From an uncultured Blautia sp. (GTDB lineage Bacteria; Bacillota; Clostridia; Lachnospirales; Lachnospiraceae), in the NCBI GenBank assembly GCA_900551075.1, contig URVB01000011.1:34752-98751 (forward strand): a DNA stretch of 64,000 nucleotides. Direction: 5' to 3'. The position numbers and the translations under genes are program-made. Shown piece after piece: positions 426 through 36,434 of this stretch. A model generated the notes under the pieces. That model searched no databases. It saw only the letters and a program-made list of their open reading frames with translations, and was not told the origin of the DNA. The number at the start of each line of letters is the position of its first letter. Within the stretch, counting starts at the first letter, position 1.

Positions 426-445
426 ATCAGTTGTGTTCAGCACAA

Positions 446-518
446 GCTGGAATAGCTCAGTCGGTAGAGCACTTCACTCGTAATGAAGGGGTCGAGAGTT
501 CGAGTCTCTTTTCCAGCT
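446..518 (+). tRNA. tRNA-Thr (anticodon CGU)
   Basis: 73-nt cloverleaf. Acceptor stem GCTGGAA/TTCCAGC, D arm GCTC..GAGC, anticodon stem CTTCA/TGAAG with loop CTCGTAA (anticodon CGT), T arm GAGAG-TTCGAGT-CTCTT. No encoded CCA. Confidence 0.85.
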
Positions 519-529
519 TACGGCAGAGA

Positions 530-593: not shown

Positions 594-941
594 TTATTTA
601 CACTTAAACTTTGTTGGTTCTTCAATCAGGGATGCAACCTGGAATTCATGTTTGTGGCCGTCTTCCATAGTAGTGAAGTCTTTTGCGAAATGCACATGCT
701 TGCCGCCGCCCACATCAATAGCACCGGAAGATTTTCCGAAGAATTCATGAAAATGGCCATCGGCAAAGTCTGTGCGGAATTTTATCTCATGAAAATGATC
801 GTCTTTGCCCGGGATAGGCTTAGCTTCTCCGGATACCGTACAAAATCTATGGTTATGGCAGTCATTGCATTCCTGGAATACCCGGGTGATACCGGTAATT
901 TCGTGGACATGTTTCTGCTCATTACAGTTATGGTTATGCAT
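594..941 (-). CDS. YmaF-like histidine-rich small protein (putative metal-binding)
   Basis: 115-aa ORF with repeated HxH and H-F-H-E motifs (HNHNCNEQKHVHE, HFHEIKF, GHFHEFF, GHKHEF) reminiscent of the YmaF family. GC is mid-range, so this is a core gene. Confidence 0.4.
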   Translation of the reverse strand: MHNHNCNEQKHVHEITGITRVFQECNDCHNHRFCTVSGEAKPIPGKDDHFHEIKFRTDFADGHFHEFFGKSSGAIDVGGGKHVHFAKDFTTMEDGHKHEFQVASLIEEPTKFKCK

Positions 942-1101
942 GATAGAACTACTCCTTATTCTTTTTCTATATGGTATGCGGAAACAGAATAAAGGTTCAT
1001 TCAGGGAAAGGAGTTAGTCTCGCACAAAAAAGTACGCCGGGTTAAACGCACACCGAATAATTCAGTGGAAATCGGTGCACCCTATCCATGAGGTGATGAG
1101 C

Positions 1102-1248
1102 ATGGACAAGAGAAAATCAGAAAAGCAGCAGCGGAAGAAATCAAATGAAGAATTTAACAGTATCACGCAGAAAGTAAAGGTGGAAAACCAAAACCAGACA
1201 CATAATGTCCGGAAAGAAGGAATTGCTCCAATCAACCAGAAACGATGA
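1102..1248 (+). CDS. small hydrophilic basic protein (48 aa), minor-SASP-like
   Basis: Not in the ORF track because it is under 60 aa. ATG at 1102 is preceded by GAGGTG 6 nt upstream. Product MDKRKSEKQQRKKSNEEFNSITQKVKVENQNQTHNVRKEGIAPINQKR. Stop is followed by a perfect 7-bp hairpin GGCGGCC-TATTT-GGCCGCC (1249-1267). Confidence 0.3.
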   Translation: MDKRKSEKQQRKKSNEEFNSITQKVKVENQNQTHNVRKEGIAPINQKR

Positions 1249-1375
1249 GGCGGCCTATTTGGCCGCCTTTACCAGTGGAGGGAAAAGTATGGACAACAAG
1301 TGCAGCCGGAGCCAAGACGCAGGCAAAAGCGGCGGGAGTTGGTACTCAGTCCTATCTTTGCTGCTTAAAAGGTTA

Positions 1376-2671
1376 CTATGGTATCATGATCTTTACAATA
1401 AAAAAATTATGCTGTTCATAAATATCAATATGTCCATTATATTTTTGAACAATGCTAAAAATTTGTTGCATACCATAGCCGTGTTGTGTCTTATCCAATT
1501 TATTGCTGAGAAGAGGGCGATTATTATCTAAGACTGACTGGCATATTTTATTTCTGATTTCGAATATTTTGTAACCTGATAAACTATAGATTTCTGTTAT
1601 TATGTATCGATTTTGAATCTTTTCATTTCGTGAAGATTCTATGGCATTATCAAAGATATTTCCCAGTAAAGAACATAGGTCAAAATCTTCCATTGGTAAA
1701 TCAGTTATATCTTCAATATTTCCTAGAAATTTGATGTTACTCTCTCTTGATTGAGCAGCCTTAAGGTTAATTATATAATTAAGCATATTGTTAGATATGT
1801 GTATTTCTTCAGAGAACACTATCTTGCTGTTGCATATATTCTTAATATATTCAATTGCATTGTTGTATGTATGATTTTCTATGCAGTAAAGTATATGCAG
1901 AAGATGATTGTTTATATCGTGTTGTAGCCGCATTAATTTGTCATAATATTGTTTGGTGTCGCTTAATAAATCGTAATCAGATTTTCTCTTTTGACGAAAT
2001 AGTTCCAGTTCTGTTTCAATTTTAGCCTTATGACTCAATCTAGTATACGTATAGAATGCAATAAGGTTATTTACACAGAGGAAAAACATTAGAAACACAA
2101 TTACAATGTTTAGTTTTAGTGGTGGCTTATCAATTAATAGGTTCATACACATGCATATTGCGAATGTACTCATAAGACCAATTAATACCACCCACTTTAT
2201 ATTACTGGTATAGTTTTTGTTTTCATAGTGATCAGCTATATAAATATAAATTGTTATAAGCATAACTAAAGTTATTTTGGATAATATACACATGGCCATA
2301 TATTCCGGAGTGAATTCTTGAAGCAATTCAGGAATGTGCTTTTTTTTAACCAGATAAAATAAATTATATATCAATATATGATTTAGCATGAGAGTCTCGT
2401 AATATAATATACATGAAAAAAAACATCGTAATTTAGAAATTTTACAAAATCCCCAATATTGCATAATAATAAAAGATACGGCCATACATAATAAAATAGA
2501 AAATAATTTAAACCTCTTATTAATAAATAACGTTATACAAGTTAAAAAAATAGACAATAGGGTTAATCCCATTTTCTTTTCTGATACTCTGTAACCATTA
2601 AATTTTGCAAAAAATATTGAAGCAAGAATAGAATCATATAATGTTAAAAAGAAACGAAAAATACTGTACAT
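1376..2671 (-). CDS. AgrC/HPK10-type sensor histidine kinase (polytopic membrane N-domain plus GHKL ATPase)
   Basis: N-terminal 250 aa are hydrophobic with multiple TM helices. H-box RLQHDINNHL, N-box GNIFDNAIESS, G-box GYGMQQ. About 430 aa as in AgrC-like kinases. GC is very low. Confidence 0.75.
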   Translation of the reverse strand: MYSIFRFFLTLYDSILASIFFAKFNGYRVSEKKMGLTLLSIFLTCITLFINKRFKLFSILLCMAVSFIIMQYWGFCKISKLRCFFSCILYYETLMLNHILIYNLFYLVKKKHIPELLQEFTPEYMAMCILSKITLVMLITIYIYIADHYENKNYTSNIKWVVLIGLMSTFAICMCMNLLIDKPPLKLNIVIVFLMFFLCVNNLIAFYTYTRLSHKAKIETELELFRQKRKSDYDLLSDTKQYYDKLMRLQHDINNHLLHILYCIENHTYNNAIEYIKNICNSKIVFSEEIHISNNMLNYIINLKAAQSRESNIKFLGNIEDITDLPMEDFDLCSLLGNIFDNAIESSRNEKIQNRYIITEIYSLSGYKIFEIRNKICQSVLDNNRPLLSNKLDKTQHGYGMQQIFSIVQKYNGHIDIYEQHNFFIVKIMIP

Positions 2672-2724
2672 TGCAAATTACCCCTATCTGTATTTTTAAA
2701 TACTGTAATAATTAAGTGTTTTAT

Positions 2725-3438
2725 TTAATGTAAAGATATTTTATATTCGTCAACCAAACTTTTAATTTTATTCCGGCTAACGGGCAAATAAATTTGAGTA
2801 TTATTATACATAACCTTTACCTCAAGTTTTTTGGTGTCAATTTTGTATATATATCTTATGCTTAATAAAATACCACTATGTATTCGAAAAAAACCTTTAC
2901 ATGATAAATCTTTTTCAACAGATTTTAATGTCGCTCTGAAAGTGTTTTCGCCATGTATTGTAACAACTCTGATATTATTATGCTGAGATTCAAAATATAC
3001 GATGTCGCTCACCTTTATGCTGTAAGTAAGTTGTGAGCCGGCATTGATAACATATTTTTCCTTATTGTTTTCTATTTTTTTTATAGCACTTGTTAAGGCT
3101 TCATCTAATTCGTCAATATGTGATTTACGAATAAATCTAAATGGATGATGCTTAAACGACTCGTAAACATACATATCAATGTTGGTTATAAAAATGACGA
3201 TAATTTTATTATTATGTTTAATAAGGTTGTCTACAAAATTAAAACCATTTATTTCCGGCATTTTTATATCGATTACAAGTATATCGACTTCAGTAGTGAC
3301 ACAATAGTCCATCAGCTTATTTGAAGAACTGGTGCTAAAACATTTGAATTTTATTCTTTGATGCAAAAAGTCTTTAACTTTAGTCACAATGAACTGTAAA
3401 ATGACTGGATCATCATCGCAAATTGCAATGTTTATCAT
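2725..3438 (-). CDS. LytTR/AgrA-family response regulator
   Basis: N-terminal receiver (MINIAICDDD, DIKMP). C-terminal LytTR DNA-binding domain (FESQHNNIRVVTIHGENTFRATLKSVEKDL, FFRIHSGILLSIRYI). Confidence 0.8.
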   Translation of the reverse strand: MINIAICDDDPVILQFIVTKVKDFLHQRIKFKCFSTSSSNKLMDYCVTTEVDILVIDIKMPEINGFNFVDNLIKHNNKIIVIFITNIDMYVYESFKHHPFRFIRKSHIDELDEALTSAIKKIENNKEKYVINAGSQLTYSIKVSDIVYFESQHNNIRVVTIHGENTFRATLKSVEKDLSCKGFFRIHSGILLSIRYIYKIDTKKLEVKVMYNNTQIYLPVSRNKIKSLVDEYKISLH

Positions 3439-3529
3439 TTTTTTTCACCCCATTTCAATTGCCTAATCTCTTAGGATTATGAGTCTTTAATTTACGAGAA
3501 GTTTAGAATTTCTTGTTAATAAAAGTCTT

Positions 3530-3895
3530 TCATTTTTTGGAATAAAACTTTCCTTGGTTTTCTAATCTAAAATAGTAATCCAGGTTTAATTTAACTGCTG
3601 CTTTATGCTCATCGCTAAGGCTTCTATATTTTAAAATAATAGAATCATAATCATGGATATCTTTAATAATAAAATTTTCTTTTTGATTTGGTGTTAAATC
3701 ATTAGAAGTTTTGTCTAAAAGATAGTCCATACTTACGCAAAAGAGTTTTGACATATCTTGTAGAAGAAAAGGAGATATTTCACATTTATTGTTTTCAATT
3801 CTGCTAATACAAGCTTGTGAGGTATGTAATAATACTGCTAAATCTTTTTGACTTAGGTTTCTGCTTTTACGCAAATTTCTTATGACTTGACTCAT
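3530..3895 (-). CDS. XRE-family helix-turn-helix transcriptional regulator
   Basis: N-terminal HTH LSQKDLAVLLHTSQACISRIENNK. Heads the XRE-RR-HK operon on the minus strand. Confidence 0.7.
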   Translation of the reverse strand: MSQVIRNLRKSRNLSQKDLAVLLHTSQACISRIENNKCEISPFLLQDMSKLFCVSMDYLLDKTSNDLTPNQKENFIIKDIHDYDSIILKYRSLSDEHKAAVKLNLDYYFRLENQGKFYSKK

Positions 3896-3976
3896 TAGGT
3901 TCTCCTTTCAATTTTAGTGGAGATAACATAATAATTTTACCCTAATAAATAAAGAGGGCTTATGCAGTATTGAATA

Positions 3977-3988
3977 TTCGTATACGAA
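3977..3988. promoter_or_regulatory. perfect 12-bp palindrome TTCGTATACGAA, candidate operator of the XRE regulator
   Basis: Located about 80 bp upstream of the minus-strand XRE start, in the divergent intergenic region. A second AATATTCG half-site lies about 43 bp away (4016-4023). Confidence 0.3.
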
Positions 3989-4377
3989 AGTGAATAATAG
4001 CCTCTGATTTGATGTAATATTCGAAAGAATAGCTTTATGTGCTGAAAAATAAGCATTGGAAATCGTCCAAGTCAGTCATTTACTTGGAGTCCCTATTGTC
4101 TGCTTTCCTGCATTTGATAGATTTTGTATTTTGAGGACATGTAAAACATATATTGATACGGGCTTCAGGATAATTTCCTTTAGGTAGTGAGGTTCTTACT
4201 TTTTCCAATACACTTATTTTGGAGTTCGGTTGCCGCCAGGCATTTTTTTGATTTAGGGTGTTGGTGTTTATCTCTGGTTCGGTTTCTCTGACAGGTTAAA
4301 CCGGTCGCTGCAGGTATATCTGAGGCAATACCCTCATTTTGTTTTGGTATGAAGCATTTATATATTGAATTCGTGCA

Positions 4378-4425
4378 ATTATCCCATAAAACTGCATATT
4401 ATCCCCAAAAACTGCATATTATCCC
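4378..4425 (+). repeat. three phased direct repeats (ATTATCCC core, 20-bp period), candidate LytTR-regulator binding box
   Basis: The 18-mer AAAACTGCATATTATCCC is identical at 4388-4405 and 4408-4425. A partial third copy TGCAATTATCCC sits at 4374-4385. The box ends 7 bp before a TTGACA hexamer. The layout mirrors AgrA/LytTR boxes, which are direct repeats at about 21-bp phasing abutting the -35. Confidence 0.55.
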
Positions 4426-4432
4426 ATAATTA

Positions 4433-4460
4433 TTGACATGAATTTCTCCATGATTATTAT
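4433..4460 (+). promoter_or_regulatory. promoter of the biosynthetic operon (TTGACA-16-TATTAT)
   Basis: TTGACA at 4433-4438 and TATTAT at 4455-4460, immediately downstream of the direct-repeat box and about 110-195 bp upstream of the first plus-strand gene. Confidence 0.5.
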
Positions 4461-4568
4461 CTTAGTAAGAATACCTATTGAATCAGGAATAGAAGGCTAT
4501 TGTAGAAATGTTTAAAATCCATAGTTTGTACAAATGTTTCAGATAATGGTCATAAAAGTGCAGATTTA

Positions 4569-5399
4569 GTGAACATCAAGTCTATAACGGTTCTAACGAA
4601 AGATACGCAGGGGATTTATGTCCTGTCGGTGCCTTTGGCAGAAAGGGATAAAGATATGTATTACATAGCAATTTGTGATGACGATTTGAATTTTATAGCA
4701 TATATAAAAAAAATGATTATTAAAACAGGAATTGCAAAAGTTAAAGTAAAATTTTACGAGTATTCTTCCGGTGAAGAATTGGTTGCTAACCTGGAGCATA
4801 TGCTACGCTGCGATTTATTATTATTAGATATGAAGATGAAGCAGTTAGATGGGAATGAAACAGCGAAGCAGTTTCGTCGTATTTATCCAACTGCGATTTT
4901 GGTATTTTGTTCTGGTTATTATCTCCCTACAATACGGTGCTTTGAGGTACGACCTTTCCGTTATCTTCTCAAAAATTTTACAAATAAACAGCTATTGATT
5001 GAGATGAAAACAATTGTTAAGGAAATGATTGCACATGTATCAGAGCCTTTTATTATTGGCAGTTACTATCATAATATTATAAGACTTAAGCCTTCTGATA
5101 TACTATATATAGAAATAGCAAAAAGAGGAAGCCGAATACATATATACCCGGATATGTTAGAACATGATTTTGAACAAAAAATTATAGCAAAAGAAAAAGT
5201 TGCTGATTTATACGAACAGTTAAAAGCATTTGGTTTTGCTTATGCTCATAACAGTTATATAGTAAATTTGAAATATATTGTGAAATTAACGCCTACTGAA
5301 TTGCAGTTACAGGATGGTACGGTTTTATCCGTTTCCCGATCCAAGACAAAAAGATTAAAACAAGAATTTATAGAAGCATTGGATAAGAAATATAAATAG
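4569..5399 (+). CDS. LytTR-family response regulator (second copy, heads the biosynthetic operon)
   Basis: Receiver domain (YYIAICDDD, LLLLDMKM) plus LytTR domain (FIIGSYYHNIIRLKPSDILYIEIAKRGSRIHIY, AYAHNSYIVNLKYI). The ORF-track start is GTG at 4569. ATG at 4656 (MYYIAICDDD, preceded by AGGGA) is the more likely start. Confidence 0.7.
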   Translation: MNIKSITVLTKDTQGIYVLSVPLAERDKDMYYIAICDDDLNFIAYIKKMIIKTGIAKVKVKFYEYSSGEELVANLEHMLRCDLLLLDMKMKQLDGNETAKQFRRIYPTAILVFCSGYYLPTIRCFEVRPFRYLLKNFTNKQLLIEMKTIVKEMIAHVSEPFIIGSYYHNIIRLKPSDILYIEIAKRGSRIHIYPDMLEHDFEQKIIAKEKVADLYEQLKAFGFAYAHNSYIVNLKYIVKLTPTELQLQDGTVLSVSRSKTKRLKQEFIEALDKKYK

Positions 5400-5585
5400 G
5401 GAAAAGCATGAATATATCAAGATTAATAAAATATTACTGCAACAAAGGATTGTTATAAAACAGAAAAATAAAGAATTAAAATATACTGCAAAAACGTCTC
5501 AAAAAAATACAGAATTTTCCCAATATATTGCATGTTAAAATAAATGGTAATAAGATGAGTTAAAAATAAATGGAGGTGTCTAGTT

Positions 5586-5855
5586 TTGAAAAAAACAGAG
5601 GTTATTGAAAAATTAAAAAAAATCATAGCAAAAAGTATGGAATTGGAAAGTGACGGCAACGAGATAGAGGGAAGTGATCTTATATTAGAATTAGGAATAA
5701 ACTCTGTAGATGCACTTGAAATACTCATATGGGTAGAAAATGAATTTGGTATCCAGATAGAGGATGAAGACTTAAACGCAGATCTTATTACTTCGCTTGA
5801 TAATCTTTCGAATTATGTTCTTTCAAAAATGGAAGATATGAAGAAAAGTAATTGA
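5586..5855 (+). CDS. acyl/peptidyl carrier protein
   Basis: 89 aa, acidic, with phosphopantetheine-attachment motif LGINSVDALEIL. TTG start with GGAGGTG 8 nt upstream. Confidence 0.7.
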   Translation: MKKTEVIEKLKKIIAKSMELESDGNEIEGSDLILELGINSVDALEILIWVENEFGIQIEDEDLNADLITSLDNLSNYVLSKMEDMKKSN

Positions 5856-5864
5856 GGTGCGGAT

Positions 5865-6785
5865 GTGAATGTGAGTCTGATCATACCTACTTATAATAAA
5901 AAGACCCGCCTGGCAATTATGCTGCAGTCGATTCGCAGGTTGAAATATGATAAGGACCTGGAAATAATTATAGTAAATGATGGCTCAAATGATGGTACGC
6001 AAAAGCTTGTGGAGGATTTTTGCCAGAATGTAAAATTAGGAGATGGAATGCATATAAAGTTGATTAGCACATCTAATCAGGGCAGATCGAAGGCAAGAAA
6101 TGTAGGAATAAAAGTGGCTGGTGGAGAATTGCTCATATTTACGGATGATGATCTTATCTTGAGCGACACTTTTGTTATAAATCATGTAAAAGAACATTTG
6201 GCATTGGACACTGCAGTTGTACATGGTCAAATATTAAGCCTTCCACAACTCAAATTTTTGGAGAATCCTGCCACAGGCCAGCAGTATGACGGAACATTGG
6301 CAAGTGAAAGAATGAGGCAATATTGTATTACACCGGATATGTTTGGTGAAGGGAGTATTCATCATTATCTTCAACATAATTCCAGAATCGGTAAATTTGA
6401 GAAGGATATAAGAGCGCTGTTTGAGCATACATCTGTTCATGATTCTTATATCCGTTGGATCGGGTTTACGGGGGGAAATGTATCCATAAGGAAGAAAAAT
6501 ATACCCATGGGTAATCTGTTCGATCCCGCGATGGGGAAAATTTGGGGATGTGAGGATTTGGAAGCTGGGTACCGTTTATTTCTAAATGGTATGAAATTTC
6601 TGTATGCACCTGCAGCCTGTAATTACCATATGAATCATTTCAGGGAGACATCTGTCAGTGAACATCGAGCTTCATTTAAATATTTTTATGACAAGCATAG
6701 AAACAAGGCAATAAAACAACTGGAAAAATATTTTGACAAAGATATTTCCACTTTGCTGGAATGGAAAAAGAGTTTAAATGAATGA
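5865..6785 (+). CDS. family-2 glycosyltransferase
   Basis: N-terminal GT-A signature LIIPTYNK...LEIIIVNDGSNDGT and a DXD-type motif (TDDDLI). Confidence 0.75.
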   Translation: MNVSLIIPTYNKKTRLAIMLQSIRRLKYDKDLEIIIVNDGSNDGTQKLVEDFCQNVKLGDGMHIKLISTSNQGRSKARNVGIKVAGGELLIFTDDDLILSDTFVINHVKEHLALDTAVVHGQILSLPQLKFLENPATGQQYDGTLASERMRQYCITPDMFGEGSIHHYLQHNSRIGKFEKDIRALFEHTSVHDSYIRWIGFTGGNVSIRKKNIPMGNLFDPAMGKIWGCEDLEAGYRLFLNGMKFLYAPAACNYHMNHFRETSVSEHRASFKYFYDKHRNKAIKQLEKYFDKDISTLLEWKKSLNE

Positions 6786-8604: not shown

Positions 8605-10155
8605 ATGAAAATGTTTATTATGGGATTGGATGGGGCTTCTTATCCACTAATATGTAAGTTTGTGAATGAAAATAAACTCCCCAATTTTAAAAAGCTATTA
8701 AAGGATAATAAGTTAAAAAAACTTATTTCCACTATTCCTCCGCATACGGCACCAGGATGGGTATCAGCATTTACCGGGGTACAGCCGGGGAAACATGGAA
8801 TATATCAGTTTTGGGATACACAGGCGGAAAGTTATTTAGGAAAGTTTATGGGGAGTAATGACTATGGTGTTGTTCCAGTATGGGAAATACTAAACCGCTT
8901 TGGCGTAAAGACCGGCCTTATTAACATACCGATGACTCATCCCCCGGAGAAGATTAATGGTTTTATGATGACCTGGCCTTTGTCTAATACATTGCGGTAT
9001 TCATATCCGGACCATTTATTACTGGATATAGCAGAGCATAACGGTCACTATGCATCGGATTTGAATCTTATGTATACGGGGGATGATAGTTATATTGAAA
9101 AATCGTTGGAAGTAACTAGGAAAAGGTTGCAGGCTGCAAAATATCTGATAAAGGAAAAAGAGTGGGAGCTGCTCGTCTGCGTTTTTACTGAAATTGACCG
9201 GATTTCACATTATTATTGGCACGACATGGAGCAGAGTCCTTCCAAATCAGAGGATGCCAAATCATTGTTAAGGAGCCATGCGATTGAAAAAATATATAGA
9301 GAGACAGATAAAGCGCTTGGAGAGATTCTCGAAATACTTACGGAAGACACATTGTTTTTGGTTATGTCTGATCACGGGTTTAGAAGAGGCGAATTCGATT
9401 TTTATATTCAGTCATTTCTGATGGAACATTCTATGTTGTATTTAAAACCGGCCGGACTTATTGCGGAGGAGGAAAGGCGATGCCTGAAAAACTCATGGTT
9501 TGCATGTATGGATAAAGGACAAGAATATTATGTGGACTGGTCGAAGACTATTGCATATATGGCATGTCCGGGATCTTACGGGGTAAATATCAACCTTCAG
9601 GGTCGTCAAAAGAAAGGGATTGTTAAAGCAGAAGAATACGAACGGGTAAGAAGTCAGGTTATTGCATGCATCAGTTCCGCAACGTTACCCGGAACGAATA
9701 TTCCCATGTTTGAACAGGTGGTCAGAAGAGAAGAGATTTATCACGGAGGAAGGATTAAAGATGCACCCGATATTCTTATGATTCCCAGTAGCTACGGTAT
9801 TATGGTGCACCATAAGATCGTGCCGGGAACTCTGTACGGAAGACCGGAACAGAACGGACTTCATGACAGAGCAGGGATTTTGGGATTATATGGAAAATCT
9901 ATAAATTATAAAATAATGAAAGAAGATATATACCTGGAAGATATTGCCCCAACTATATTAAATTATTTTGGTCTTGCCAAAGGTGATTATATGGATGGAG
10001 CATCAATATGTAATTTTAACCGGGGTGCACTTATTCCTTGGGAATATCCTTTAGAGGGATTAGAACGTTATAGCCAGGAAGACAGTATTTCCGGGTATAC
10101 GGAACAAGAGAAACTGGAAGCAGAAGAAAAGCTTAAGGCTTTAGGTTATTTATAA
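8605..10155 (+). CDS. alkaline-phosphatase-superfamily protein, type I phosphodiesterase/nucleotide pyrophosphatase-like (paralogue 1)
   Basis: N-terminus FIMGLDGASYPL followed by TIPPHTAPGWVSAFTG, matching the NPP/PF01663-type metal-site and Thr-nucleophile blocks. No TM segments. Confidence 0.55.
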   Translation: MKMFIMGLDGASYPLICKFVNENKLPNFKKLLKDNKLKKLISTIPPHTAPGWVSAFTGVQPGKHGIYQFWDTQAESYLGKFMGSNDYGVVPVWEILNRFGVKTGLINIPMTHPPEKINGFMMTWPLSNTLRYSYPDHLLLDIAEHNGHYASDLNLMYTGDDSYIEKSLEVTRKRLQAAKYLIKEKEWELLVCVFTEIDRISHYYWHDMEQSPSKSEDAKSLLRSHAIEKIYRETDKALGEILEILTEDTLFLVMSDHGFRRGEFDFYIQSFLMEHSMLYLKPAGLIAEEERRCLKNSWFACMDKGQEYYVDWSKTIAYMACPGSYGVNINLQGRQKKGIVKAEEYERVRSQVIACISSATLPGTNIPMFEQVVRREEIYHGGRIKDAPDILMIPSSYGIMVHHKIVPGTLYGRPEQNGLHDRAGILGLYGKSINYKIMKEDIYLEDIAPTILNYFGLAKGDYMDGASICNFNRGALIPWEYPLEGLERYSQEDSISGYTEQEKLEAEEKLKALGYL

Positions 10156-10165
10156 AAGGAGATTT

Positions 10166-10801
10166 ATGTTTAGCCCATATACAGGAAAGATATATTCAAA
10201 TCAGGAAGTATTGGAGGCAGCCGGGAAGTATCACGGTCAAATTCAAGTAATAAAACATGTAAATAAATATAAAAATGCTGCTAAGTCGATTGCTGAAGGA
10301 AAAATTATCGGTTGGTTCCAAGGCAGGTCCGAGGTTGGGCCAAGGTCACTGGGGAATCGGAGCCTGTTGGCAGATCCGAGAAATCCACAAATGAAAGATA
10401 TTATAAACTACAGAGTAAAATTTAGAGAGGCTTTTCGTCCATTTGCGCCATCTGTACTGTATGAATATCAACAAGAATATTTTGATCTGGATATTCCATC
10501 TCCTTATATGCTGATGGTGGCAGATATCTGGCCTGAGAAACGGGAACAGATTCCTTCTGTAACCCATATAGATGGAACCGGGAGATTGCAGACGGTCGTA
10601 AAGGGTATGAATCCTGTTTACTACGAACTCATTCATCATTTCTATAAATTAACGGGTGTTCCGGTTTTATTAAATACTTCGTTTAATGTGAATGGAGAAC
10701 CGATTGTGGAAACGCCAGATGACGCAATCAAATGTTTCCTGCATTCGGATTTTGATGAACTTTATGTAGAAGACGTATTGGTAACAAAAATAAAGAATTA
10801 G
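10166..10801 (+). CDS. carbamoyltransferase C-terminal (YrdC-like, carbamoyl-adenylate-forming) domain as a stand-alone ORF
   Basis: Contains GRSEVGPRSLGNRSLLADPR, FRPFAPSV, THIDGTGRLQTV and LNTSFNVNGEPIVETPDDAI, the conserved blocks of the NodU/CmcH/TobZ C-domain. Confidence 0.7.
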   Translation: MFSPYTGKIYSNQEVLEAAGKYHGQIQVIKHVNKYKNAAKSIAEGKIIGWFQGRSEVGPRSLGNRSLLADPRNPQMKDIINYRVKFREAFRPFAPSVLYEYQQEYFDLDIPSPYMLMVADIWPEKREQIPSVTHIDGTGRLQTVVKGMNPVYYELIHHFYKLTGVPVLLNTSFNVNGEPIVETPDDAIKCFLHSDFDELYVEDVLVTKIKN

Positions 10802-10817
10802 CAGAAGAGGAAAATAT

Positions 10818-11819
10818 ATGTATATTCTTGGATTAGGCGGATCGAATCATGATTTTTCAAGTTGTCTTATAAAAGATGGAGAGATACTGTCCATCATTGA
10901 AGAAGAAAGAATCACAAGAAAAAAGCATGGAATAGGTCTTGGTGTCAGCTTGGCGAAAGGATTATCTGTAAAGTATTGCTGTGAAGCAGCGGGAATAGAA
11001 TTTGGTGATATTGATCTTGTGATAGGAAATGAAATTTTAAATAAAGTTATGTACAGGAGAATGCAGCAAGAGGTGATACTAATTAATCACCATCTTGCAC
11101 ATGCTGCCAGTTGCTTTTATCCTTCACCGTTTCAGGATGCTGCAATATTAGTGGCGGATTCTGTAGGAAGCAAAAAATTAGATAGAGGAGAATGTCTGTA
11201 CGAGTCTGTATCTTTTGCAGTAGGGAATGGGAATGAAATTCATATTAAAGAGAATATTTCGGGCAGAAATATGAAAGAGACGGATCTCATTGAGAATTCC
11301 CTTGGGATTTTTTATTCGGTTATAACGCAGATCATTGGCTTTGGAGAACACCAGGAAGGAAAGACAATGGGACTGGCGCCTTATGGAACAAATAAATATT
11401 ATCATTTGATGAAACAGCACATCAGATGTATCGGAGATGGAAGAATAGAAATGAAAGAGGAAGACATAAGACAGTTGTTCACTTACAAAGATATCATAGA
11501 TACTGCAAGCGAAAATAAAAAGGCGGAAATAAAAGCAGACTTTGCATATGCGGCACAGCAGGTTTTGGAAGAATGTATGCTGTATTTATGTAGACATCTG
11601 AAGAAGCTGACAAACAAGAAAACATTGTGTCTGGCCGGTGGAATTGCCCTGAATAGTGTGGCTAATTATAGAATTTATAAAGAAAAGATATTTGAACAAA
11701 TATTTATACAGCCAGCCTGCGGGGACAATGGGACATCGATCGGAAGTGCGCTTTATGGACATTACGCAGTTATGGGACAAAAGCGTAATGTTGGAAGGAG
11801 AGACAGAGGTGAATTATGA
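10818..11819 (+). CDS. carbamoyltransferase N-terminal (Kae1/ASKHA-like) domain as a stand-alone ORF
   Basis: MYILGLGGSNHDFSSCLIKDGEILSIIEEERITRKKHG, HHLAHAASCFYPSPF, ILVADSVGS and QPACGDNGTSIGSALY match the NodU/CmcH N-domain. Confidence 0.7.
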   Translation: MYILGLGGSNHDFSSCLIKDGEILSIIEEERITRKKHGIGLGVSLAKGLSVKYCCEAAGIEFGDIDLVIGNEILNKVMYRRMQQEVILINHHLAHAASCFYPSPFQDAAILVADSVGSKKLDRGECLYESVSFAVGNGNEIHIKENISGRNMKETDLIENSLGIFYSVITQIIGFGEHQEGKTMGLAPYGTNKYYHLMKQHIRCIGDGRIEMKEEDIRQLFTYKDIIDTASENKKAEIKADFAYAAQQVLEECMLYLCRHLKKLTNKKTLCLAGGIALNSVANYRIYKEKIFEQIFIQPACGDNGTSIGSALYGHYAVMGQKRNVGRRDRGEL

Positions 11820-35582: not shown

Positions 35583-36434
35583 ATGAAACATAATTTAAAA
35601 AAAGTGCTGAAAACAGATAGAGAAAAACACTCAATAATCAAAATTGGGGAATTGGAAATTGGCAAAGATTTTACATTAATTGCCGGACCATGTGCAGTAG
35701 AATCGGAAGACCAAATAGTGGAAATTGCAAAATTTGCTAAGGCATACGGAGCCAATATCCTTCGTGGAGGAATTTATAAGCCTAGAACCTATCCTTATTC
35801 GTTTCAGGGAGTAAAAGAAAAAGGCTTCCGATATCTTGCCACAGCAAAAAAGGAAACGGGACTTCCTGTTGTTTCCGAGATTGTAGACATAAATGATTTA
35901 GAAAAGATGTATCCATATTGTGACATGTTTCAGATAGGGACAAGAAACGCACAAAACTATGCGTTATTAAAGGAGGTAGGCAGAACAGAGAAGCCTGTGC
36001 TGCTAAAGAGAGGATTTGCTTCCACTATATATGAGTGGCTGGGATGTGCAGAGTATATATTAATGGAAGGAAACCAAAATCTGGTTCTATGTGAGAGAGG
36101 AATCAGAACATTTGAAAATTACACAAGGAATACTATGGATCTCAGTGCGATTTCTGCCTTAAAAACCCTGTCACATGTTCCTGTAATTGCAGATCCTTCC
36201 CACGGAACGGGAAGAAGTGAGCTGGTATATCCAATGAGTATGAGTTCTATTATGGCCGGCTGTGACGGATTGATGTTGGAAATACACTTGGTACCAGAAC
36301 GTTCGGTATGCGATGCCAATCAAACAATATCACTAGAAGCATTTCGAAAGCTGGCGGGTGATGCGGTAAAGCTCTGGAAGTTTAAGCAAAACGAGTTAAA
36401 GGACTTAAATACAGAAGCAATAACAGAATTGTGA
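35583..36434 (+). CDS. class I-beta 3-deoxy-7-phosphoheptulonate (DAHP) synthase (RifH-function candidate)
   Basis: IAGPCAVESEDQIVEIAKFAKAYGANILRGGIYKPRT and later ADPSHGTG match short AroA(I-beta)/KDO8PS-fold DAHP synthases. Confidence 0.7.
   Translation: MKHNLKKVLKTDREKHSIIKIGELEIGKDFTLIAGPCAVESEDQIVEIAKFAKAYGANILRGGIYKPRTYPYSFQGVKEKGFRYLATAKKETGLPVVSEIVDINDLEKMYPYCDMFQIGTRNAQNYALLKEVGRTEKPVLLKRGFASTIYEWLGCAEYILMEGNQNLVLCERGIRTFENYTRNTMDLSAISALKTLSHVPVIADPSHGTGRSELVYPMSMSSIMAGCDGLMLEIHLVPERSVCDANQTISLEAFRKLAGDAVKLWKFKQNELKDLNTEAITEL

Follow-up and report, generated by a model that had tools for sequence, protein, structure and literature searches.

Two agr-type regulator sets without signal-making genes and a candidate LytTR cascade at a biosynthetic island of an uncultured Blautia sp.

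The agr system of Staphylococcus aureus combines an AgrC-type polytopic GHKL kinase with a LytTR regulator, and in its divergent promoter region paired or tandem direct repeats immediately precede the −35 elements of P2 and P3. VirS–VirR of Clostridium perfringens and RgaS–RgaR of Clostridioides difficile likewise comprise a kinase and a LytTR regulator, with no agrBD beside them. Their few target promoters are marked by two direct repeats about 21 bp apart, and the source of their signal is unlinked or not known. RgaS–RgaR consists of an orphan AgrC-like kinase and a VirR-like regulator with G-51/G-72 repeats; its targets include agrB1D1 and its ligand is unidentified (PMC10602386). Here, we analyze a 64,000-nt stretch of the genome of an uncultured Blautia sp. 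(Lachnospiraceae; assembly GCA_900551075.1, contig URVB01000011.1, positions 34,752 to 98,751 of the forward strand), hereafter the window. It carries an AgrC-type kinase (HK), two LytTR response regulators (RR1 and RR2), and an XRE-family helix-turn-helix (HTH) protein at one end of a biosynthetic island. We propose that these genes probably form a two-tier LytTR cascade, drawn from two different agr-type lineages that both lack agrB and agrD here, which would switch on the ~44-kb cluster.

The region resembles S. aureus agr by its AgrC-type polytopic GHKL kinase, its LytTR regulators, and the position of direct repeats immediately before −35 elements around a divergent promoter region. Moreover, relatives of both regulator families encode AgrB and a short AgrD in which a cysteine is followed by a QP(E/K)xP tail. 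Unlike S. aureus agr, the window is devoid of agrB and agrD, and no boxes are demonstrated before the kinase operon, so that no autoinduction loop is visible. The box sequences also differ, with a spacing of 20 bp for the class that we call type I, and no RNAIII-like or other structured RNA was found in 4000–4350 or in the RR2 leader (Rfam matches limited to tRNA; folding z-scores of −0.5, −0.1, and −0.8). Neither RR1 nor RR2 matched an S. aureus AgrA chain in the PDB at an E value of 1e-3 or better, RR1 retrieving only ComE (4CBV, E 5e-6). By analogy, the closest functional counterparts are the orphan AgrC/AgrA-like systems of clostridia, VirSR and RgaS–RgaR, and the region works like agr at its receiver end while standing outside the complete-agr class. 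It differs from VirSR and RgaSR in that the kinase and the regulator are adjacent and led by xre, and in its putative target, a second, heterologous LytTR regulator together with a large biosynthetic island.

Autoinducing peptides (AIPs) are known to control antibiotic clusters, as do the Pp-AIPs of Paenibacillus polymyxa, and agrD and biosynthetic gene clusters co-occur at the genome level, at rates exceeding 50% for several AgrD families and with the strongest association in Bacillaceae and Paenibacillaceae (PMC12180512). As in P. polymyxa, an agr-type system is here coupled to a biosynthetic cluster, physically and, we infer, functionally. Unlike the P. polymyxa system, which keeps agrBD and its own AIP, both modules of the window would be receivers only, acting in series. 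In Lactobacillus plantarum, the plantaricin locus plnABCD governs antimicrobial production by means of a single HPK10 kinase and a pair of LytTR regulators that act on direct repeats; the two regulators, PlnC and PlnD, are paralogues encoded in one operon and bind the same repeats. The window shares with plnABCD the presence of two LytTR regulators for one kinase of the peptide-sensing type, but RR1 and RR2 are only 25% identical, belong to different agr lineages, are associated with distinct box classes, and are divergently transcribed. A limited full-text literature search returned no description of two serial agr receivers of different ancestry, both stripped of signal synthesis, nor of either box consensus defined below.

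Two regulator sets of different agr ancestry

The initial annotation had described a kinase gene, a LytTR regulator gene, and an xre-like gene on the minus strand, divergent from a second LytTR regulator gene; this arrangement is accurate (table 1), as is the lack of agrB and agrD nearby, which extends to the 64 kb analyzed. None of the four regulatory ORFs is truncated, and their catalytic or phospho-acceptor motifs are intact. The N-terminus of HK is polytopic, with about six hydrophobic transmembrane-like segments within residues 1–207, and precedes a GHKL ATPase domain. Its H-box, HDINNHL, is intact, and the His and N/G boxes are invariant in the family alignment. The RR1 gene lies 54 nt from the kinase gene and is its operon partner. 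The operon thus provides an AgrC-type kinase, as defined by a membrane N-terminus, a HATPase_c_5 domain, and an H-box, with an adjoining LytTR regulator.

The HK family is rare: about ten full-length relatives, 35–51% identical, were found among 5.8 billion proteins, and a metagenome scan revealed few further ones. Related loci are cited here by their L numbers. The kinases of L087–89 and L097 (51% identical to HK) and of L092 (44%) belong to xre-RR-HK triads with no agrBD on the available sequence, which in L097 extends 6 kb past the kinase. This triad without agrBD is intact in three lineages, with kinase identity down to 44–51%. Among relatives at 36–40% identity, AgrB and AgrD are encoded next to the kinase. 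L093–95 (kinase 39%) have the order xre-RR-HK-AgrB-AgrD, with a phosphopantetheinyl transferase (PPTase) gene and polyketide synthase (PKS) genes adjacent; L090 (38%) has RR-HK-AgrB-AgrD adjacent to a nonribosomal peptide synthetase (NRPS), and L096 (37%) HK-AgrB-AgrD adjacent to PKS genes. In L091 (38%), which carries no xre, RR-HK is followed by NusG, ACC, and PKS genes. The AgrDs of this family, such as that of L093, contain the sequence PSIWGCYQPKEPKEL. RR1 is 57% identical to the L087 regulator, 54% to that of L092, and 42–43% to those of L090, L091, and L093, and xre is kept upstream of the regulator in L087–89 (63% identity), L092 (49%), and L093–95 (52%). Over residues 1–200, the HK sensor is 30–33% identical to the sensors of agrBD-linked kinases and homologous to them over its whole length.

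RR2 belongs to another and much larger family. Its ORF spans 4569–5399, and its 246-aa homologues align from the ATG at 4656. We identified 622 relatives, the best of which are 246 aa long and 50–61% identical, with more than 100 proteins at that identity over 100% of the length. RR2 keeps all invariant columns, including the receiver residues D8, D9, D58, S86, and K106. Among 80 fetched RR2-family loci, an AgrC-like kinase lies directly downstream in most, and agrD and agrB are found within 6 kb in about half. The usual gene order is agrA-agrC-agrD-agrB, and several loci stand beside NRPS or PKS genes. This comparison identifies RR2 as an AgrA ortholog that has become an orphan; its family, agrA-agrC-agrD-agrB, is widespread in clostridia. 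In the window, it has no adjoining kinase, AgrD, or AgrB, and a 186-nt spacer leads directly to the acyl carrier protein (ACP) gene that opens the island. HK itself shares only 22% identity with the AgrC kinases that accompany RR2-family regulators. Homologues of the regulators come overwhelmingly from Lachnospiraceae and other Clostridia.

A search for an agrC remnant in the spacer between RR2 and the ACP gene gave tblastn E values of 0.39 and 0.73 at 5437–5529. With a profile of 62 AgrC sequences, the spacer was the top non-kinase piece of the window, at an E value of 0.7; in both searches, the stretch is A-rich and overlaps the type II boxes described below. Orphan RR2-family regulators also occur in L029, L038, and L075, where the ORF lists, on which no domain search was run, suggest no comparable adjoining cluster.

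Signal-making genes were sought throughout the 64 kb. No ORF of at least 90 aa matched AgrB (PF04647), and tblastn with five AgrB and four AgrD sequences from both related families gave nothing better than scattered matches at E 0.2. Among 50 intergenic small ORFs, nothing resembled an AgrD, and a six-frame search for [CS]x3-7[QEH]PxxP yielded no plausible match. Remnants of agrB or agrD were detected neither in the 670-bp divergent spacer nor past the kinase gene. A 196-aa ORF after promoter P3 was considered as an AgrB substitute and rejected, the predicted protein being soluble and acidic with just a weak Cupin_2 match. The window is therefore not a complete agr locus, since agrB and agrD are missing from the 64 kb. 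The boxes precede RR2 and the cluster, not the kinase operon.

Two box classes at three promoters

Direct-repeat boxes stand just upstream of three −35 elements: three type I boxes (R1–R3) before P1, and two type II boxes each before P2 and P3 (table 1). The ATTATCCC cores of the type I boxes, at 4378–4385, 4398–4405, and 4418–4425, are spaced by exactly 20 bp, and 7 bases separate the last core from the TTGACA of P1. An 18-mer, AAAACTGCATATTATCCC, occurs twice, at 4388 and 4408; with up to three mismatches, it has 3 matches against 0.22 expected, and none of 100 shuffles gave 3. P1 is the best sigma-70-like match in 900–5900 (11/12), and the sequences of both P1 and P2 recur with 100% identity in seven further assemblies (L002 and L176–L181). 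The repeats and their phasing had been read correctly to the base in the initial annotation, which placed them at the promoter of the biosynthetic operon. They do abut a promoter, but it is that of RR2; the cluster has the promoters P2 and P3, missed at that time, with another box class.

Two lines of evidence bear on which regulator recognizes the type I boxes. The first is a single-box position weight matrix built from related loci outside the window only (training median 16.6). It scores R2 at 17.2 and R3 at 18.9, making them the two best 14-mers of the whole window, while the type II matrix gives them −0.7 and −2.0, respectively (training minimum 5.1). The second is their distribution. Across 1.72 Mb of fetched loci, the pair ATTATCCC-N12-ATTATCCC is confined to HK/RR1-family loci and the window, 6–7 nt before a TTGAC-like −35, and the RR2-family loci (n = 80) contain only three weak, promoter-less matches. 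Type I pairs are located ahead of agrB in L093, L096, and L106, in line with the suggestion made earlier that the repeats are placed as at agr promoters, and ahead of PKS-type genes in L093 (at 12216) and L091 (at 5674). In L087–89, type I boxes (TACATTTGTCCC... TACATATTATCCCC) followed by TTGACC-17-TAAAAT precede a divergent operon beside xre. The box TACATATTATCCCC is near-identical to that of the window, and the contig encodes an RR1 homologue and no RR2 homologue. The genes that this triad and box would control, an Fpg-like gene and 2-hydroxyacyl-CoA dehydratase genes, are unrelated to the window's cluster. As L091 carries boxes without xre, their presence follows that of the regulator and kinase together, not that of XRE.

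The family-confined distribution, together with the separation by the single-box matrices, leads us to assign the 4374–4426 repeats to RR1: they appear to be RR1-family sites, to which RR1 would bind. Either LytTR protein had previously been held a candidate binder; given two regulators from two agr lineages, the comparative evidence points to RR1. The matrix scores led us to reject hybrid boxes serving both regulators. A generic repeat element, an objection that the initial annotation had raised against itself, is likewise rejected, as within the fetched loci the 18-mer and the ATTATCCC-N12-ATTATCCC pair are restricted to the promoters of one regulator family, and no match for 1376–5600 was found in plasmid and phage collections.

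The type II box consensus is TGCAAAAAnnGCC[C/A], with a period of 21 and 6 nt before the −35. In the RR2 family, the type II promoter of agrD reads TGCAAAAAnnGCCC, 7 nt, TGCAAAAAnnGCCA, 6 nt, TTG. A two-box matrix derived from 19 agrD promoters of RR2-family loci was used to scan the window. Its best match (29.0, at 5484–5533) corresponds to P2 and the second (26.1, at 43772–43821) to P3; the next scores 10.8, and the maximum over 100 block shuffles is 19.4. At a score of at least 22, this matrix matched 58 of the 82 RR2-family loci; non-family sequence, 763 kb in total (216 kb from HK-family loci and 547 kb from loci of other GHKL kinases), gave no match. It does not pick up the 4374–4426 site. 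The single-box matrices also separate the two classes cleanly: the boxes of P2 score 15.0 and 10.6 with the type II matrix versus −9.1 and 2.9 with the type I matrix, and the distal boxes of both P2 and P3 score 15.0 with type II and −9.1 with type I. P2 and P3 have the same layout and, by our own count on the alignment, are ~70–75% identical from the boxes through the −10. As both copy one layout, they are likely in use rather than relics. No terminator-like site was predicted on the plus strand in 5399–5586, between RR2 and the ACP gene.

A type II pair is also found in Lachnotalea glycerini DSM 28816 (L005, 2321–2370), where the operon that follows it ends in agrB and also carries genes for an epimerase, a glycosyltransferase, an enoyl-CoA hydratase, and an HMG-CoA synthase. 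By this arrangement, an RR2-family box heads biosynthetic genes plus agrB in a cultured species.

Other elements were noted around these promoters. The spacer at 3990–4370 (~400 bp, ~40% GC) contains no recognizable gene or RNA. A terminator-like hairpin, TGAGGCAATACCCTCA, at 4321–4336 on the plus strand, followed by a T-run, lies just upstream of R1. The RR2 leader contains a 19-nt direct repeat (TTGTAGAAATGTTTAAAAT at 4500–4518 and TTGTACAAATGTTTCAGAT at 4526–4544, with a 26-nt period), which by a rough estimate is marginally above chance and fits neither box class, and a box-like sequence, CATAAAAGTGCAGATT, at 4551–4566. Upstream of xre, only a weak box resemblance was found (ACTGCATAAGCCC, 3971–3957, minus strand). 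A perfect palindrome at 3977–3988, TTCGTATACGAA, also upstream of xre and with an A-to-G variant in L002–L004, could be an XRE operator.

Table 1. Positions of the regulatory genes, boxes, and promoters and of the island features in the window
Feature	Position	Strand	Description
tRNA-Thr	445–519		~850 bp left of the left island boundary
HK	1376–2671	−	AgrC-type sensor histidine kinase, 431 aa; Pfam HATPase_c_5, E 6e-20
RR1	2725–3438	−	LytTR response regulator; Pfam Response_reg and LytTR
xre	3530–3895	−	XRE-family HTH protein; leads the xre-RR1-HK operon; Pfam HTH_3, E 4e-11
Type I boxes R1–R3	4374–4426	+	R1 TGCAATTATCCCAT, 4374–4387; R2 TGCATATTATCCCC, 4393–4406; R3 TGCATATTATCCCA, 4413–4426
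Promoter P1	4433–4460	+	TTGACA 4433–4438, 16 nt, TATTAT 4455–4460; into RR2 via a ~190-nt leader
RR2	4656–5399	+	LytTR response regulator; Pfam Response_reg and LytTR
Promoter P2	5487–5556	+	Boxes TGCAAAAACGTCTC, 5487–5500, and TACAGAATTTTCCC, 5508–5521; upstream of the ACP gene
P2 elements	5528–5556	+	TTGCAT 5528–5533 (6 nt after the boxes), 17 nt, TAAGAT 5551–5556
Biosynthetic island	5586–49826	+	~44 kb, ACP gene to PPTase gene; from Pfam annotation and GC profile
ACP gene	5586–5855	+	First island gene
Glyoxalase-family gene	42993–43454	−	Minus-strand gene within the island
Promoter P3	43775–43844	+	Boxes TGCAAAAACAGCTC, 43775–43788, and AGCCAAAATTCTAC, 43796–43809; upstream of the 43948–49826 sub-operon
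P3 elements	43816–43844	+	TTGTTT 43816–43821 (6 nt after the boxes), 17 nt, TAAGAT 43839–43844

A proposed cascade and its alternatives

Boxes of the RR1 type stand in front of RR2, and each half of the cluster has boxes of the RR2 type at its head. In the cascade that we propose, a ligand would act on HK. It is most likely a cyclic peptide, coming from an unlinked locus or from other bacteria, because the HK sensor is homologous throughout to agrBD-linked sensors. HK would then phosphorylate RR1, and phospho-RR1 would activate P1 via the type I boxes, leading to the accumulation of RR2. Since the stretch from RR2 to the ACP gene has no predicted terminator, partial read-through from P1 into the latter is also probable. 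RR2 would in turn activate P2 and P3 via the type II boxes, which together would cover the ~44-kb cluster. Its phosphorylation could be due to cross-talk from the window HK, to another AgrC, or to acetyl phosphate. Cross-phosphorylation of a non-cognate regulator has been described for Listeria AgrC (PMC10891604).

Several observations weigh against this cascade. The assignment of the boxes to their regulators relies on co-occurrence in rather few independent loci, some 6–8 lineages in the case of type I, and the proximal box of P3 is weak when taken alone (−0.7 with the type II matrix). The spacing of characterized LytTR sites is usually 21–22 bp, versus 20 bp for type I. With −35 and −10 elements near consensus, P1 may be substantially constitutive. 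Cross-phosphorylation of RR2 by HK is speculative, given the low identity of HK to the AgrCs of the RR2 family. The absence of signal genes covers 64 kb of the genome, and agrBD could be encoded elsewhere in it. Finally, decay of the first tier, xre-RR1-HK, is possible, as the kinase is called as two ORFs (95 and 349 aa) in 14 contigs of other samples and transposase-like sequences follow the kinase in its closest relatives (L092, 3990–4237; L087, 5655–6098, and L097, 2266–2968). The split ORFs could be natural receptor-null variants or assembly errors. Receptor-null variants are common for agrC. Several regulatory genes are also fragmented in the long-read assemblies L178–L180, for which the same two explanations apply. 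At the 3′ end of the kinase gene, where more distant relatives carry agrB-agrD, there are three different junctions, that of the window being the island boundary.

A simpler scheme has a single tier: HK and RR1 would act on P1, and one long transcript would supply RR2 and the cluster, RR2 being a passenger and the type II boxes inert leftovers of an agrD promoter. The terminator-free stretch after RR2 would allow such a transcript, RR2 has no cognate kinase, and P2 sits where a clean deletion of agrC from the gene order of the RR2 family would leave the agrD promoter. However, a deletion scar would hardly account for a second copy of the promoter layout 38 kb away, the reading frame and the invariant receiver residues of RR2 are intact, and the minus-strand gene separates the two sub-operons, so that read-through from P1 cannot easily reach 43948–49826. 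We therefore regard the single-tier scheme as unlikely.

A different question concerns the signal itself, for which the initial annotation had offered an orphan peptide or the pathway product. HK might sense a product or an intermediate of the pathway, which would result in autoinduction and would be compatible with the cascade. The lack of agrBD in the 64 kb, and on the available sequence of the closest relatives, L087 and L097, fits this idea. Against it, the sensor is related over its whole length to those of kinases with AgrB and AgrD next to them, the L087–89 triad and box stand with unrelated genes, and unlinked agrBD is an established clostridial pattern (PMC10602386). Sensing of a pathway product thus seems improbable.

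It is equally improbable, in our view, that both modules are debris, truncated when the island was assembled and now controlling nothing. Some traits recall decay: both modules lack agrBD, RR2 lacks a kinase, the kinase end coincides with the GC boundary of the island, transposase-like genes follow the kinase in L092 and L087/L097, and the kinase ORF is split in some assemblies. Within the HK/RR1 family, L090 illustrates how the promoter of the autoinducer genes can decay, the comparison of its positions 9284–9375 with 9330–9470 of L093 revealing the deletion of the type I box region and of the AgrB N-terminus. Yet in the window all four regulatory ORFs are complete with their motifs kept, and the triad without agrBD has stayed intact across three lineages despite the divergence of its kinases. 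Moreover, three tandem, high-scoring boxes are placed with precision ahead of a strong promoter, and both type II promoters coincide exactly with the start of an operon.

Lastly, the 4374–4426 repeats might be the own sites of RR2, forming an AgrA-like positive feedback with xre-RR1-HK as an unrelated neighbor or a phosphorylation supplier, as R1–R3 start with TGCA and end with CC[C/A] like RR2-family boxes and 6 nt lie between the last box and the −35, a distance also seen at agrD promoters, but we give this little credence, since R2 and R3 score below the training minimum of the RR2-family matrix and high on that of the RR1 family, the two-box matrix misses the site, and in L087–89 a near-identical box occurs on a contig that encodes a homologue of RR1 but none of RR2.

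The biosynthetic island and its regulation

The island is sharply delimited by its base composition: GC content is 26–42% from ~1376 to ~49830 and 43–50% in the flanks, and the left boundary is the 3′ end of the kinase gene. The flanks carry housekeeping genes (glgB, tRNA-Thr, and ymaF at one end; nadB, nadC, and nadA at the opposite end). By Pfam, the low-GC stretch corresponds to the biosynthetic island of ~40 genes. They encode ACPs, adenylating enzymes, a PPTase, radical-SAM enzymes, methyltransferases, a glycosyltransferase, a PIG-L deacetylase, a split carbamoyltransferase, CysD/CysN, and BtrH-like proteins. The minus-strand glyoxalase-family gene splits the second sub-operon from the first. 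The locus, with identical promoters, is present in at least seven other assemblies, including a 2.78-Mb contig (VZQY01000040.1) of GCA_018263635.1. It is also carried by the ENA assemblies ERZ1948695–97 and by samples such as SRR28352055–57 and ERR5031928/33.

A set of genes resembling those for 3-amino-5-hydroxybenzoic acid (AHBA) formation by the aminoshikimate route, similar to rifG/H/J/K/L/M/N, is located at 20778–24563, 25381–27141, 35583–36434, and 48016–49098. Segments 5586–6785, 10166–11819, and 24633–25367, with ACP, glycosyltransferase, PIG-L deacetylase, and carbamoyltransferase genes, accompany it in the window. Members of the set include a GFO/IDH/MocA oxidoreductase, a ROK kinase, a type II dehydroquinase, a HAD domain, a DAHP synthase, and a dehydroquinate synthase; the best PDB match of the DegT-family aminotransferase is AHBA synthase (1B9H, E 4e-93). 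Together, these genes are reminiscent of the opening steps of the mitomycin pathway. A product derived from AHBA would be unusual for an anaerobe. The carbamoyltransferase is split and permuted, the Carbam_trans_C ORF (10166–10801) preceding the Carbam_trans_N ORF (10818–11819), and the same ORF order is called in L002. The glyoxalase-family gene was considered as a homologue of the mitomycin-resistance protein MRD and rejected, a PDB search retrieving only two uncharacterized glyoxalase-family entries.

Because both regulator sets lack signal-making genes in the window, a peptide produced elsewhere probably governs the cluster. An extension of the cascade, which we put forward as a doubtful conjecture, is that the strain makes no autoinducer of its own and uses the system as an eavesdropping weapon switch. 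HK would detect a foreign or unlinked thiolactone peptide and the signal would pass from RR1 to RR2, and only afterwards would this anaerobe of the gut make an AHBA-derived, possibly mitomycin-like metabolite. If so, two serial agr receivers of different ancestry would form a feed-forward or persistence filter of a kind that is not known from agr systems.

If the two-tier model holds, it provides a testable regulatory logic for a large silent cluster, made of three short promoters, two regulators, and one kinase. These parts could be rebuilt in a heterologous host, or the cluster activated by over-expressed RR2 or a phosphomimetic RR1. The two classes of DNA boxes, defined for two clostridial LytTR families, would allow prediction of agr regulons and of the clusters that they control across gut metagenomes. 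More generally, the locus would be a further example of agr receivers that lack signal synthesis, here arranged serially, and bears on the reuse of quorum-sensing parts in the assembly of biosynthetic islands.

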